Shown one piece after another: positions 35,360-39,354 of a DNA stretch of 64,000 bases; the first letter of the stretch is position 1, and every line of letters starts with the position of its first letter. This stretch comes from a virus (taxonomy: Duplodnaviria; Heunggongvirae; Uroviricota; Caudoviricetes). Made by a program: the position numbers and the translations under genes. The stretch lies in the IMG/VR virus record IMGVR_UViG_2778261268_000002, one strand, 5' to 3'. The notes below the pieces were generated by a model. That model had not been told where the DNA came from. It was given only the letters and a program-made list of their open reading frames with translations, and searched no databases.

Positions 35360-37374
35360 GAGAGCTGTGCTATGGATCTGTTTGCAGTGGAATTGAAGCC
35401 GCGAGCATTGCCTGGGAACCGTTGGGTATGCGTCCGGCGTGGTTTGCTGAGATCGAGCCTTTTCCATCTGCCGTTCTTGCGCACCGCTGGCCCCATGTCG
35501 CCAACCTTGGCGACATGACAAAACTCGCCCAAAAAGTCCAGGCAGGAGAAATTGAAGCCCCTGATATGCTCGTCGGGGGTACGCCTTGTCAGGCATTCAG
35601 TATCGCGGGCTTACGTGGTGGGCTTGATGATGAGCGCGGCGCGCTAACTTTGAAGTATGTGGAGCTTGCAAATGCAATTGACGACAAACGGGCTGAGTCC
35701 TTCCTCAAACCAGCAGTTATCGTCTGGGAAAATGTCCCAGGAGTCCTGTCATCAGCAGATAACGCGTTCGGATGTTTCCTTGCCGGATTGGCTGGAGAAG
35801 ATGCGCCATTCGAACCTGGTGATCGACCTGAATCACGAAAAAGTAATACGTTCTGGCGGTGGGATGTCAAAACCGGTTGCCATGCTCCAAAGTGGCCGCA
35901 GTGTGGTTGTATTTATGGACCGCAGCGAAAAGTGGCCTGGAGAATCCTTGATGCCCAATACTTCGGAGTGGCACAACGACGCCGACGCGTGTTTGTTGTC
36001 GCAAGTGCTCGAACAGACCTCGATCCCGCAACGGTACTTTTTGAGTTCGAAGGCGTGCGCCGGAATATTGCGCCGAGCAGAGGCGAGGGGAAGGAAACTA
36101 CCAGATATACTTCAAACATCGCTATCAGAACTTGCGATGATACAAACATAATTGCCATGGCACATGGGCAAGGAGGGGCTGAGATAAAAACCGATAATTC
36201 GGCACCAACTTTGACATGTAACCATGAAGCACCAATTGTATTGCTCGGCGACGGTAGAATGCGCCGTCTTACCCCTGTCGAATGTGAAAGGCTGCAAGGT
36301 TTTCCTGATGGGCATACGTTGATCCCGACGGAAAAGCGTAAAAAAGTTAATTCAGATGAACTGGCATATCTTCGCAATCACTATCCAGATTTAAGCGAAG
36401 AAGAGGTCGCGATGCTTGCAGCTGACGGACCGCGTTACAAAGCGATCGGCAATAGTATGGCAATACCAGTAATGTGCTGGATTGGAGATCGGATTACTAA
36501 GGCCGTATGTCGGCAGAAAGAAGGAAGTGAAACAAAAGAGCGAAAAGTTAAACCAGCGGCAGAATTCGAACGGTCCATATTCAAATGGGCTGGTGGAAAA
36601 TTTGGTGTTCTGGAACAAATCTTTCACTATTTGCCAGAAGGGAAGCGCCTGATTGAACCTTTCGTTGGTGGCGGAGCTGTCTTCATGAATGCCGGATACC
36701 AGGAAAATCTGCTAAATGATGTGAATGCTGACCTGATTAACTTTTACAAGACTCTGCAACGCGAGGCGCATTCACTTATCACTCTGGCACATCGTTTCTT
36801 CCTGGACTACAACACCCAGGAGGGATTCCTGGCAGTACGGAATGCGTTTAACAAACAAGTCTATGATGATTTACATCGCGCAGCGGCGTTTTTGTTCCTG
36901 AACCGACATTGTTTTAATGGATTGACGCGCTACAACCAGGCCGGTGAGTTCAATGTCGGTTATGGGAAGTATAAAACTCCGTATTTCCCATTACAGGAGA
37001 TGGAAGCCTTCCTCGGTGCGGAAGGGCGGTCTGAGTTTGTATGCGGTGATTTTGCAGCAGTGATTGAAGCTGCCGGAGAAGGAGATGTCATCTTTTGCGA
37101 TCCGCCGTATGAACCGCTCCCCAATACAGAGGGGTTTACGAACTATTCCGGTCATGACTTTAAGTTTGAAGAGCAAAAACGCCTGGTGTCTCTGTTGACG
37201 GATGCTCATCGCCGAGGTGCAAAGGTACTCATTACTAACAGTGGCGCGCCAAACGTCAGAGAACTTTATCAGGACAGTGGCTTCAGAGTGGAACCTCTCT
37301 TTGCCAGACGTTCTGTGTCTTGTAAGGGAGACACTCGTGGTGTTGCTCATGACGTTATGGCTATATTGCTCTAA
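35356..37374 (+). CDS. dmt: Bifunctional DNA methyltransferase (N-terminal cytosine-C5, C-terminal Dam-like adenine-N6)
   Basis: GTG start overlapping the hrdC stop; C5 motifs [27 protein letters not shown]; C-terminal WAGGK and DPPY motifs. Confidence 0.8.
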
Positions 37375-37381
37375 TAAATTT
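37365..37381 (+). promoter_or_regulatory. Repressor (C1-type) operator overlapping the dmt stop codon
   Basis: ATTGCTCTAATAAATTT followed by an inverted degenerate copy AAATTTATTAGTGTAAT. Confidence 0.55.
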
Positions 37382-37558
37382 ATTAGTGTAATATCACCTC
37401 AATGAATCGTGATTTATAGAGCGATTTAGCTGTTAGCCGCGACAGGCGCGGCGGCAAGTATGGCGGGGTAGTGACTCCTTCCCCATCATGACGCCGAGTT
37501 GCCAGGTTGACCATACGCCTAAGTGGCAACACCGAAGTGCGTTACGAGCTTCCAGTTT

Positions 37559-37584
37559 GCCCATCTTCGGGTGGGCGTTTTTTT
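37559..37584 (+). terminator. Rho-independent terminator
   Basis: GCCCATC-TTCG-GGTGGGC followed by TTTTTTT. Confidence 0.6.
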
Positions 37585-38050
37585 CAGGGTTTTCGTCATG
37601 GTTAGCGACTTTGCGGCGGTTTAGAAACTGACCATTAAAGTAAATGCAAACGATGATCTGATGATGGTAGCGGCCTAAGAAGCCAGACGCCACGGGGTAT
37701 GAGTCGTCCCCCGTCAAAAAATCGACCGCAGAGTGTCCCCGTCTGTGTATTAGGGAACGGGGAGGCACAACAGGTAAGGGCGCTGGTTCGATTAACCAGA
37801 TGAGCGAGAAGGGGTCATCTTTTTGGTCAGCGTCCTTACCTGTTACGTCCTTTTTCATTCTGCGTAACAGCAATTGCTTTTAGCAATTTGAAGATAACGT
37901 CCTACTACGGGTGTATCCCGTCATGCTGAAGGCGCTAATCACGCTGGAAGCCAGGGTTGTGCATCCCCTGTTACCGAATTGCAGCCAGGGCGCGGTGCGC
38001 CGAAAAGCATACGGAGGTGGAAGCCCTCGCCGGAGACGTACCCGGCAAGT

Positions 38051-38126
38051 GATGGTGTAGCTCAGCGGTTAGAGCGGTTGACTGTTAATCAACGGGTCGA
38101 TGGTTCAAATCCATCCACCATCGCCA
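38051..38126 (+). tRNA. tRNA-Asn (anticodon GTT)
   Basis: Cloverleaf with acceptor GATGGTG/CACCATC, anticodon loop CTGTTAA, T-loop GGTTCAAATCC, encoded CCA. Confidence 0.9.
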
Positions 38127-38128
38127 AT

Positions 38129-38204
38129 GCCGGTTTAGCTCAGTTGGTAGAGCGCCTGCCTTGTAAGCAGGATGTCAGCGGTTCGAGTCCGTTAACCGGC
38201 ACCA
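38129..38204 (+). tRNA. tRNA-Thr (anticodon TGT)
   Basis: GCCGGTTTAGCTCAGTTGGTAGAGC..., anticodon loop CTTGTAA, T-loop GGTTCGAGTCC, encoded CCA; 2 nt after tRNA-Asn. Confidence 0.9.
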
Positions 38205-38767
38205 GCACAACAGGTAAGGGCATTCTCCCTTATAGGGCTTGGCTTAAATGCATCGAGTGCTCTTACCGTTGTGATGAAGTGCAGCTCTTTGAAGCAACCA
38301 GAAGATAAGCATCTGGCTTCACAACATAAACCGCAGGAACGACCAATAAACGGTAGTCCGTATGGAGAACACCCCGTTGAGGAAGAGGCCTGGCCGGAAC
38401 CGTAACCGGCGACTGGTAATGTGTGTAAATGGAGCGAAATATGTGGGCGTTTAACGGGATACGGGTTGTAACAGCGATTATTAACGGCGAACTTAAGTAT
38501 TCACGTTTCGAGACAAATGAACGTGATGGGAAATGTATTGGTGTGCGGTTAGTAAGAGAATACGCATAACAACTACAACGTTGAGAACACTGGCGTAACG
38601 GGGTCATATCCCAATCTATGAATAAATGTTGCGTTGCAGCGTGACAACCAGTGTTCTCAACATTGTGGTGAATGCACAGGCTGATGTGCCGCAACTACAG
38701 TAGTGCGCGCTTTGCGGGGCTTGCTACAACCCTGTGTCGGAGTTCAGCACCGACCATCACAATCACT

Positions 38768-38854
38768 GGAGAGTAGGGAGCATGGTGCTCAAACGGTCTT
38801 GAAAACCGTCCCATTGCGCAAGCGATGATGGTTCGATTCCATTACTCTCCGCCA
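38768..38854 (+). tRNA. tRNA-Ser-like element (anticodon TGA; class II, possibly pseudo)
   Basis: Acceptor GGAGAGT/ACTCTCC, anticodon arm ACGGT-CTTGAAA-ACCGT, long variable arm with GCAA tetraloop, T-loop TTCGATT, CCA; D-arm is short. Confidence 0.45.
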
Positions 38855-39117
38855 GTGCAACGTTAAGAGTATTTGGCTAATTAAGCGAATGCCGGAAGCA
38901 GAACCGGATCACCAAATGCGTACAGGCGTCATCGCCGCCCAGCCAGCCAAGTGCTCTTACCATTGCGGTGAATGCGGCTATGCGCACGCGGAACAGTTAA
39001 AACAATCCTCCTTAGTGGTTAAGTCAAACATCCCGGCGTTAATTGTTAACTGGTTAACGTCACCTGGAGGCACCAGGCACCGCAGCTTTTTTATTCGTTA
39101 AATAATGGAGTGAGAGG

Positions 39118-39354
39118 ATGCAGAACAATCCGAACAAATGTCGAACGCTATGGGTGCGGTTATATATTTATGCCGTCCTCTGTTTGATTGTGTCACTGGT
39201 TCTGTATGTTTGGCTTTTGCCAAATATGATCTCATCTAACAGCACAATACTTGTATTGTTGGGAGTCCTTTTCGCGCTCATTTACCCGGCTTTCGCAGTA
39301 GTCTTTTTTCGTGAAAAAACCAGGAAATTAATTAATGAAAAAAACGTTGATTAG
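39118..39354 (+). CDS. Small integral membrane protein
   Basis: 78 aa, two hydrophobic helices; overlaps the start of the downstream lipoprotein gene. Confidence 0.5.
   Translation: MQNNPNKCRTLWVRLYIYAVLCLIVSLVLYVWLLPNMISSNSTILVLLGVLFALIYPAFAVVFFREKTRKLINEKNVD

Follow-up and report, generated by a model that had tools for sequence, protein, structure and literature searches.

The ban operon leader of a P1-type phage-plasmid as a candidate array of hairpin-punctuated small RNAs, one of them tmRNA-like

We analysed the leader of the ban operon in a P1/P7/D6-type phage-plasmid, the 64,000-nucleotide (nt) IMG/VR record IMGVR_UViG_2778261268_000002 (the whole of which we call the window), and consider it probably to be a polycistronic array of small structured RNAs read from the + strand, in which the units are punctuated by hairpins formed between two recurrent junction sequences, J1 and J2. 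One of the units, which we term element X, looks from its sequence like the message-carrying (coding) half of a bacterial transfer-messenger RNA (tmRNA) and is unannotated even in P1. The stretch studied is 93–95% identical to P7, P1, D6 and many P1-like plasmids. By comparison with these, and because operators, tRNAs, tRNA(CAU) and ban are placed as in P1 and P7, positions 37375–39117 are identified as the leader of the ban operon, untranslated and under C1 repression, in whose ∼1.7 kb there is no credible gene.

In annotated P1 and P7, the divalent C1 operator Oban (Op72) and the promoters P1ban/P2ban overlap the end of dmt at its stop codon and are followed by a ‘dicF-like region’, tRNA-Asn and tRNA-Thr; in P1 the tRNAs are followed by the minus-strand open reading frames (ORFs) plp and upl, and then by tciABC, tRNA(CAU) and ban. 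The window corresponds to this annotation in position, operators, promoters and tRNA genes. Its divalent operator Oban a/b (formerly Op72), which overlaps P1ban/P2ban at the start of the ban-operon transcript, lies at 37365–37392, as in P1 (NC_005856) and P7, and consists of a C1 operator, ATTGCTCTAATAAATTT, at 37365–37381 and an inverted partner at 37376–37392. The same two tRNAs as in P1 are present, together with an extra, D6-like tRNA-Ser(UGA). From 5' to 3' on the + strand, to which all coordinates below refer unless stated otherwise, the order is Pban/operator, U0 with a terminator, X, spacer hairpin SH1, unit Y, tRNA-Asn, tRNA-Thr, SH2, module T1, SH3, module T2, tRNA-Ser, SH4, module T3, ORFs, tRNA(CAU) and ban.

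Junction sequences and spacer hairpins

The leader holds four repeat features, three of which had been described in an earlier note made from the letters of this DNA. A 17-nt exact direct repeat, GCACAACAGGTAAGGGC, is present as reported at 37765–37781 and 38205–38221, the second copy abutting the 3' end of tRNA-Thr; simple arithmetic puts its chance expectation at ∼1e-4 in 1.9 kb. A 26-nt motif does occur in three copies, all on the + strand, at 38256, 38650 and 38950, the third start having been placed at 38949. Nowhere else in the 64-kb window does its degenerate core, CTYWMCRTTGYGRTGAA, occur; with ≤2 mismatches allowed, 0.40 matches were expected, and three were reached in 1 of 100 shuffles. 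The long-range inverted repeat is likewise real, its length being 22 nt (38572–38593/38648–38669, 91% complementary) rather than the 15 bp reported, and the hairpin that it closes (38572–38669) has a folding z-score of −5.2. A further inverted repeat of 17 nt, absent from the earlier note, pairs 37769–37785 with 37828–37844 (z = −5.9) and takes in the first copy of the direct repeat.

All four repeat features belong to one pairing system, which had gone unrecognised, as had the tmRNA-like element. The 17-nt repeat is junction J1 (...CAACAGGTAAGRGCATT), found after units, and the 5' half of the 26-nt motif is junction J2 (AGTGCTCTTWCC), found before units and the reverse complement of the 17-nt repeat core; the long inverted repeat is a J1/J2 hairpin bearing compensatory changes. 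J1 follows X, tRNA-Thr and tRNA-Ser in the window and also T2 modules in relatives, while J2 precedes T1, T2 and T3 in the window and X in other phages. J1 and J2 are thus predicted to pair into four spacer hairpins between units. In SH1 (37765–37848), J1 at 37765–37785, which begins with copy 1 of the 17-nt repeat, pairs with a J2-type sequence at 37828–37844, giving a minimum free energy (MFE) of −46.1 kcal/mol and z = −5.9. SH2 (38205–38267) joins copy 2 of the repeat to the J2 of motif copy 1 (38256–38267), a match in line with J1/J2 covariation. SH3 (38572–38669; z = −5.2) joins the J1 variant GUUGAGAACA to the J2 variant UGUUCUCAAC of motif copy 2, and relative to the consensus GGUAAGAGCA/UGCUCUUACC carries three compensatory double changes. 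SH4 (38857–38962) joins the J1 variant GCAACGUUAAGAGUAUU to J2 at 38950–38962, the 5' half of motif copy 3. All four hairpins were recovered as MFE structures when the RNA folding that the earlier note had proposed was carried out.

Comparative evidence points the same way. Among 38 distinct adjacent J1/J2 pairs, 93.9% of cells were paired and 6 of the 13 base pairs had changed on both sides; double-change cells numbered 46, against 12.2 ± 2.6 in shuffles (0 of 500), and pairing fell to 41–59% in controls in which the two strands were slid. Across relatives each J2 variant comes with its own J1 variant (TGTTCTCAAC/GTTGAGAACA, TACCCTTACC/GGTAAGGGTA, TGCTCTTACC/GGTAAGAGCA). Moreover, J1:J2 pairs are often U-G on the + strand; seen from the opposite strand these would be C-A mismatches, and we therefore take the paired molecule to be RNA of + strand sense rather than structured DNA. 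The repeats are conserved, P1, P7, D6 and many phage-plasmids having them at corresponding positions, and the view of the earlier note that this is not spacer DNA holds, the + strand RNA helices being kept through compensatory and G-U changes. Relatives show dozens of architectures, in which whole units are gained or lost exactly at the motif and which differ in having tRNA-Asn or tRNA-Arg, tRNA-Tyr or none, tRNA-Thr, one to four modules, and tRNA-Ser or none.

Such reshuffling at the motif in many relatives, the same junction sequences in unrelated phage families and the true C1 operators at the 5' edge could also suggest that the repeats act as DNA, either as recombination sites or homology patches (attC-like, or like lambdoid ‘boundary sequences’) or as sites for a phage protein, with RNA structure incidental. 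We regard this as improbable. Tolerance of U-G on the + strand only fits an RNA, and fits neither a DNA cruciform nor a double-stranded protein site. Integron attC sites, whose cores read RYYYAAC ... GTTRRRY, present an inverse core and then a core for folding of single-stranded DNA; the motif does not match these core sites, and orientation and order are reversed. Agreement with the C1 operator consensus is only 10/17. Recombination at the repeats is a likely consequence of the system and leaves the compensatory changes unexplained. The earlier suggestion of protein-binding sites thus stands for the C1 operators at the 5' edge (37365–37392) and falls for the repeats, and these are not decayed tRNA copies either, being the junctions J1 and J2 and the closing stems of modules.

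Our initial reading of the motif was as a boxA-type site, the J2 half (UGCUCUUACC/UGCUCUUUCC) binding NusB/NusE and other Nus factors so that transcription would resist Rho over the 1.7 kb to ban, as in rrn operons and at lambda nut. J2 does resemble the boxA of rrn (UGCUCUUUAACAA) and of lambda nutR (CGCUCUUACACA); in T2 the boxA-like half is followed by a hairpin of 5 bp with a 6-nt loop, and a long untranslated operon would need protection from Rho. This reading was displaced by the J1:J2 covariation, and we now hold it to be quite unlikely. The boxA core (GCUCUUUA/GCUCUUA) has the consensus in two of the three window copies, varies in relatives with a compensating J1 change and is predicted to be paired. 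Common variants depart from it (UACCCUUACC, UGUUCUCAAC, UGAUCUUACC), each with a compensating J1 partner, so that the selected property appears to be pairing, and a paired site would be sequestered. P1 is not known to encode an N-like protein, and STnc100 and the Qin elements described below lack the boxA-like half of the motif entirely. An antiterminator RNA of the HK022 put type was also considered and rejected, the motif being absent from the HK022 early region.

A leader organised as an array of RNAs would work as follows. Once C1 repression is lifted, RNA polymerase would start at Pban, and part of the transcripts would stop at the terminator at 37558–37585 to give a small RNA at the DicF position. 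Read-through RNA would fold co-transcriptionally into units and spacer hairpins of 13–22 bp, which would insulate neighbouring folds and offer probable sites for cleavage by the double-strand-specific RNase III. RNase P, acting at tRNA 5' ends, would also trim T2, leaving its 3' end just beyond the closing stem, and RNase E and exonucleases would finish the remaining ends. The near-identical J1/J2 copies would provide homology for recombination that swaps, adds and deletes units, and the cassette-like diversity of units would follow from repeated junctions favouring recombination. Of the readings offered earlier, ‘processed small RNAs’ is the best supported, with comparative structure as its whole basis.

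Several points weigh against the array. The observations proper are conservation, helices with covariation and cassette-like reshuffling, from which we infer that the leader is transcribed and processed. Some of the J1/J2 and module sequences had been gathered with patterns drawn from the motif itself, which inflates conservation at the pattern positions, though not covariation at free positions, and because many of the sequences are close relatives the shuffle controls overstate their independence. It is equally possible that each J2 pairs with the J1 that follows its own unit, thereby bracketing units instead of separating them. Two of the spacer stems, at 13–15 bp, are short for canonical RNase III substrates, and folding z-scores are unremarkable for the modules (−0.1 to −1.1) and only −1.5 for U0 and −1.1 for Y. 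Thermodynamic stability is thus informative for the spacer hairpins (z about −5 to −6) and tells nothing either way about the modules, U0 and Y.

Element X and the coding half of tmRNA

Element X (37586–37764) is supported by an Rfam match, conservation, covariation and a covariance model of our own. Its 5' segment, GCGACUUUGCGGGUUUUUAGAAACUGACCA, is invariant, and its invariant core, AAAUGCAAACGA, corresponds to the tmRNA resume region. The resume-codon context TAAAT·GCA (37641–37648) opens a tag frame (37646–37678) that encodes ANDDLMMVAA and ends in TAA, the resume region and tag together (37641–37678) reading UAAAU·GCA AAC GAU GAU CUG AUG AUG GUA GCG GCC UAA. The SsrA tag of Escherichia coli is ANDENYALAA. 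Copies of X from enteric phages (31 aligned) always have ten codons and a stop, with tags such as ANEEMYLAVA, ANDDVVLMAA, ANDEQFLAVA, ANDNTFLAVA, ANDNAYLMVA and similar. X therefore has both the resume context of a tmRNA and a short tag of the expected kind, with a hydrophobic/Ala end and a stop codon, and ARAGORN recognised its resume consensus when thresholds were relaxed.

Structure agrees with sequence. In 31 diverse sequences, X could be folded into a hairpin that holds the stop codon, as helix 5 of tmRNA does, and two adjacent H-type pseudoknots, together six helices and 25 pairs, of which 14 had changed on both sides; 92.7% of cells were paired, and covariation was 0.360 against 0.147 in shuffled alignments (0 of 500). 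In the window the predicted, covarying pseudoknots are a (37692–37697/37709–37714 and 37703–37706/37723–37726) and b (37727–37731/37743–37747 and 37736–37740/37759–37763). A stem 2 illustrates the covariation, being GUCG/CGAC in the window and CCGA/UCGG, CCAG/CUGG, CCAA/UUGG or CUAG/CUAG elsewhere. The Rfam model tmRNA_permuted (RF04321) scored X at 24.1 bits (E = 0.005), short of its gathering score of 47, and X of six other phages at 22.5–32.7 bits, likewise below threshold.

Searches with X found it at 70–84% identity in unannotated gaps of unrelated phages, usually near tRNA genes: the N4-like PD205, the Vi01-like phiMAM1 and PhiSH19, the T1-like SG01, Akira and BUCT610, and the lambdoid HK633, where it lies between pR'/qut and the holin gene. 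A pattern search of genome contigs matched only three species-representative genomes. Our covariance model found a single copy in the window, at 92.6 bits (by construction), and scored SSU5-like phage-plasmids, whose tag is ANEEVYLAVA, at 60–62 bits (E ∼1e-9); these loci, retrieved by way of their tRNA region, had no part in building the model. True permuted tmRNAs scored 17–34 bits, which we do not count as independent support, since a 16-nt seed from X had been used to retrieve them.

X lacks a defining feature of a tmRNA. The tRNA-like domain of a tmRNA comprises a 7-bp acceptor stem with G3:U70, a T-arm and a 3' CCA, and in X neither ARAGORN nor Rfam reliably found any of these; at default settings ARAGORN made no tmRNA call, and in the Rfam alignment 111 model positions of the tRNA-like domain are deleted. 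With ARAGORN -ps85 a pseudo-call was obtained at 37558–37807, assembled from the 5' strand of the terminator together with a hairpin of the SH1 loop that is T-loop-like; it has six of the seven acceptor pairs and lacks both G3:U70 and CCA. For other phages, the relaxed calls were mutually inconsistent or plainly false. Since tmRNA coding features are kept and the tRNA-like domain is missing, X looks, as far as sequence can tell, like the coding piece of a phage-borne two-piece tmRNA whose acceptor part has been lost or outsourced. Both halves of the tRNA-like domain are present in 27 environmental viral contigs that share the resume context of X and carry bona fide two-piece tmRNAs. In these IMG/VR contigs (L142, L161, L152 and 24 others), ARAGORN reports complete permuted tmRNA genes, with tags that include ANDERFLMAA, ANDERFALAA and ANDDSFTPMALAA; they are possible relatives of the ancestor of X.

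Two kinds of genomic setting bear on where an acceptor piece might lie. In Akira (∼1455–1500) and BUCT610 (∼2510–2555), a near-consensus sigma-70 promoter, TTGACA-17-TAGATT, stands directly 5' of X. Given that the promoter abuts X in these T1-like phages, no upstream acceptor piece is possible there, and X would form the 5' end of a primary transcript that runs on into J1/J2 hairpins, modules and tRNA-Met. The virulent phages PhiSH19 (L137 644–3070), PD205 (L133 491–3087) and phiMAM1 (L134 787–3017) have stretches of 2.2–2.6 kb without annotated genes, which contain X, J1/J2 hairpins and odd tRNA-like genes, among them a 92-nt ‘tRNA-Cys’ and a pseudo-tRNA called Ala by ARAGORN. T-arm- and acceptor-like fragments such as GGGTTCGACTCCCTAAAACGGCTCCAC also occur in these stretches and could hide an acceptor partner for X. 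We tried to build an acceptor piece from the tRNA-like genes 5' of X in PD205 and phiMAM1 and from the T-arm-like fragments of PhiSH19, and obtained no convincing assembly.

A leader of decaying remnants, of a tmRNA gene, tRNA genes, plp and upl, carried along with functional tRNAs, would explain why X has no tRNA-like domain, why a T-loop-like sequence, CTGGTTCGATTAACCAG (37783–37799), lies in the SH1 loop, why P1 has plp and upl annotated here and why unit content varies among relatives. We judge it very unlikely, because the frame, stop and two pseudoknots of X have been kept through many compensatory changes in families that share little else, the J1:J2 and T2 helices covary, and plp and upl are not conserved as reading frames.

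Conservation of the frame in X argues that the tag is, or recently was, read. Most likely, although this is the least certain step of the argument, X acts on trans-translation, in the role of either a decoy or a split coding piece. That it is a working ‘tRNA-less’ tmRNA, its tag translated on stalled ribosomes in infected or lysogenic cells, is a tentative proposal that we think more doubtful than not. Translation of the tag might then proceed through pairing with a separately encoded acceptor RNA, in the fashion of split tmRNAs, or through exploitation of the host SmpB/tmRNA machinery. If this were true, many enterobacterial phages (P1-like and SSU5-like phage-plasmids, T1-like, N4-like, Vi01-like and some lambdoid phages) would be interfering with ribosome rescue and protein tagging, either reprogramming or blocking them, through an RNA delivered as a cassette of a mobile, hairpin-punctuated non-coding RNA array. 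As X covaries and is conserved in common enterobacterial phages, phage interference with trans-translation would be testable in E. coli with P1.

Modules, U0 and other occupants of the leader

A pattern scan of viral contigs with the 26-nt motif returned at least 120 loci. The 3' half of the motif (RTTGYGRTGA) always had, among the matches listed, a complementary partner 50–150 nt further 3', and on this comparison we assign it as the predicted 5' strand of the closing helix of three paralogous modules, T1, T2 and T3. Closing stems covary among the paralogues (GTTGTGATGA/TCATCACAAC; GTTGTGGTGG/CCACCACAAC; GTTGCGGTGA/(G)CACCGCAAC; GTTGTGGTGA/GCACCACAAC). T1 (38268–38325) is the minimal form, closed by GUUGUGA/UCACAAC, as indicated by its fold and by stem covariation. 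T2 (38661–38764) has its closing stem at 38661–38669/38755–38763, ends 4 nt 5' of tRNA-Ser and folds into a hairpin GCACA-GGCUGA-UGUGC (38674–38689), a variable insert and a conserved hairpin (38736–38754). Modules of this type generally consist of a 5-bp hairpin GCRCA-GGCUGA-UGYGC, an insert of 25–130 nt and a conserved terminal hairpin, and usually abut tRNA-Ser; in 22 distinct T2 cores 98.8% of cells were paired, six pairs showed double changes and the covariation was matched by 0 of 500 shuffles.

T3 (38963–39085), whose fold has a closing stem UUGCGGUG/CACCGCAG and a terminal hairpin at 39063–39077, ends 32 nt 5' of the first ORF start codon (39118). It matched the Rfam model of the prophage small RNA STnc100 (RF02076) at 40.1 bits (E = 2e-6) over model positions 31–147 of 206, below the gathering score of 47; the homologue of T3 in Qin scored just 34.4 bits. 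Compensatory variants preserve the closing helix and the terminal hairpin (GTTGCGGTG/CACCGCAAC vs GTTGTGGTG/CACCACAAC; CCGGG/CCCGG vs CCTGG/CCAGG), and T3-like elements lie directly 5' of dicB in Qin and, in Stx phage 75/02, directly 5' of kil. T3 shares with STnc100 both the core helices and a prophage early-operon context, and its sequence places it as a sub-threshold relative.

The terminator-ended unit that the earlier note saw after dmt is present, with a hairpin and T7 at 37558–37585. It includes U0 (37437–37534), the ‘dicF-like region’ of the P1 annotation, which is homologous to the stretch lying directly 5' of DicF in Qin-type prophages; of 5426 complete E. coli genomes, 4424 have chromosomal sites ∼82% identical to it. 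The match in K-12 (locus L008 2501–2597) falls in the dicB operon of Qin and stops 25 nt short of DicF, and DicF itself, our control, scored 76.7 bits in Rfam (locus L008 2622–2673). Differences among the window, P1 and Qin are compensatory (GUAUGG/CCAUAC vs GCAUGG/CCAUGC; GUUGCCA/UGGCAAC vs GUUGUCA/UGACAAC) and so support three helices in U0. At the DicF position a terminator scan found instead a 3' module of small-RNA type (37538–37585), a single-stranded stretch followed by the terminator hairpin (37558–37577) and T7. No window match to the DicF covariance model (RF00039) was obtained even at E ≤10, and we rejected a DicF homologue after dmt: the flanks alone are homologous, DicF having been replaced by another stretch and a terminator, so that ‘dicF-like region’ is right for the locus and not for the small RNA.

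Homologues of unit Y (37849–38050) were found in P1-like elements only. It contains a palindrome, CAATTGCTTTTAGCAATTTG (37871–37890), and a hairpin, GCCGGAGACGTACCCGGC (38029–38046), which is like the terminal hairpin of T2 modules and whose 3' end lies 4 nt from tRNA-Asn. One half of the palindrome matches the C1 operator consensus, ATTGCTCTAATAAATTT, at ∼13/17; P1 has no operator annotated at this place.

The tRNA and covariance-model scans that the earlier note had called for gave the three leader tRNAs and sub-threshold matches to tmRNA_permuted, STnc100 and tRNA-Sec. ARAGORN and the Rfam tRNA model agree on tRNA-Asn(GUU) (38051–38126; 74.5 bits) and tRNA-Thr(UGU) (38129–38204; 74.9 bits). 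The 87-nt tRNA-Ser(UGA) (38768–38854), called by ARAGORN, has an encoded CCA and an atypical fold, its best Rfam match being the tRNA-Sec model just under threshold (45.1 bits; gathering score 47); the annotators of D6 had flagged it as odd, tRNAscan declining to assign it. It may be a serine tRNA of unusual fold, of the kind by which phages supply a missing host tRNA. The segment 38768–38945, that is tRNA-Ser and ∼90 nt 3' of it, is matched at ∼83% identity in rV5-like (Vequintavirinae) phages, where some of the matches bear a tRNA-Ser annotation, and SSU5-like plasmids have a copy of T2 and tRNA-Ser that is 94.7% identical.

That no convincing protein frame occupies the region was borne out. 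The P1 reference genes plp and upl (NC_005856 3296–3865, equivalent to window ∼38175–38760) are probably mis-annotations, and the DNA assigned to them is explained by the + strand RNA helices. Plp of P1 starts at TTG, and its C terminus is the reverse translation of tRNA-Thr, which it overlaps in antisense; in relatives its frame is broken by a stop (L004), split by indels (the window, L047, P7 and L012) or interrupted (pLH10-b-1-B). upl is truncated in most relatives, and the RefSeq annotation of a close relative calls no gene in the plp/upl stretch. A lineage-specific insertion of 161 bp (38411–38571), absent from P1, P7 and D6 and not a multiple of three, falls inside the plp frame. The motif itself was considered as a small Cys-rich peptide (CSYHCGEC/CSQHCGEC) or a remnant of Plp and rejected, as no ORFs support it and plp and upl are broken; the ‘conservative’ peptides seen in all three motif frames arise because the copies are 70–85% identical.

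The insertion contains a 42-codon ORF (38441–38569; MWAFNGIRVV...) with a GGAG ribosome-binding site, whose peptide falls in one tiny protein cluster of six members with no Pfam domain recorded for it. Missing from most relatives, the insertion is present in only 18 PLSDB plasmids, all ≥99% identical. Downstream of the leader, genes for a 78-aa predicted membrane protein and a 275-aa SPFH-domain lipoprotein-like protein (39118–40162) stand in place of tciA/tciB/tciC, and tRNA(CAU) and ban come after them.

Comparison with known systems

X resembles the coding piece of a two-piece tmRNA (RF04321; ‘tmRNA*’ in ARAGORN) in its resume context (U)AAAU·GCA AAC GA, its ten-codon tag with a hydrophobic/Ala end, the stop codon in a hairpin loop, the H-type pseudoknots that come next and an A-rich linker; unlike that piece, it sits within an array of tRNAs and small RNAs and is not a stand-alone gene. 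In the literature consulted, phage tmRNAs are reported only for mycobacteriophages and Bacillus phage G, the variant in DS6A being the tRNA-like half only (PMC4131195). X, the coding half alone, is the opposite of the DS6A fragment, and in the literature on phage tmRNA-like elements and on the X tag sequence we found nothing relevant to X.

T3 resembles STnc100/PasD in its closing helix (of the UGGUG...CACCA type), its 5' GAAU(G/C)C hairpin and its terminal hairpin, CACCKGGAGGCACCMGG, and also in context, STnc100 lying just 5' of dicB or kil in lambdoid PL-type operons. T1 and T2 differ in being paralogues with other inserts that the Rfam model does not detect, and the window modules as a group differ in having J2 in front and in being part of a punctuated tRNA array. 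STnc100 is a prophage-encoded small RNA related to PasD, the function of which is unclear (bioRxiv 10.64898/2026.05.13.724894; PMC12370729). The likeness to the DicF locus of Qin extends to both flanks, with U0 homologous to the segment 5' of DicF and T3 to that 3' of it, and the leader likewise belongs to an early, repressor-controlled phage operon; in the window, unlike Qin, the homologous flanks are separated by ∼1.4 kb of X, tRNAs and modules.

P1 is among the most studied of phages, and the annotation of its ban leader stops at operators, a ‘dicF-like region’, two tRNAs and a pair of doubtful ORFs; all of the RNAs described here are missed by genome annotation pipelines. As far as we could find, the J1/J2 cassette syntax has no earlier description. 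This syntax (unit, J1, hairpin, J2, unit) and the same units recur beside tRNA genes in phages that share almost nothing else, which points to a mobile non-coding gene set travelling with phage tRNAs.

Comparable arrangements are known in the tRNA cluster of phage T4, where the stable RNAs species 1 and 2 are co-transcribed with the tRNAs, and in rRNA operons, which have RNase III processing stems. By analogy with both, the leader would have one promoter from which tRNAs and stable RNAs are cut out of a common precursor, and, as in rRNA operons, stems formed by flanking sequences would mark the processing sites. It differs from both in its unit types, which are tmRNA-like and STnc100-like, and in that a single reusable J1/J2 pair recurs between all units and across unrelated phage families.

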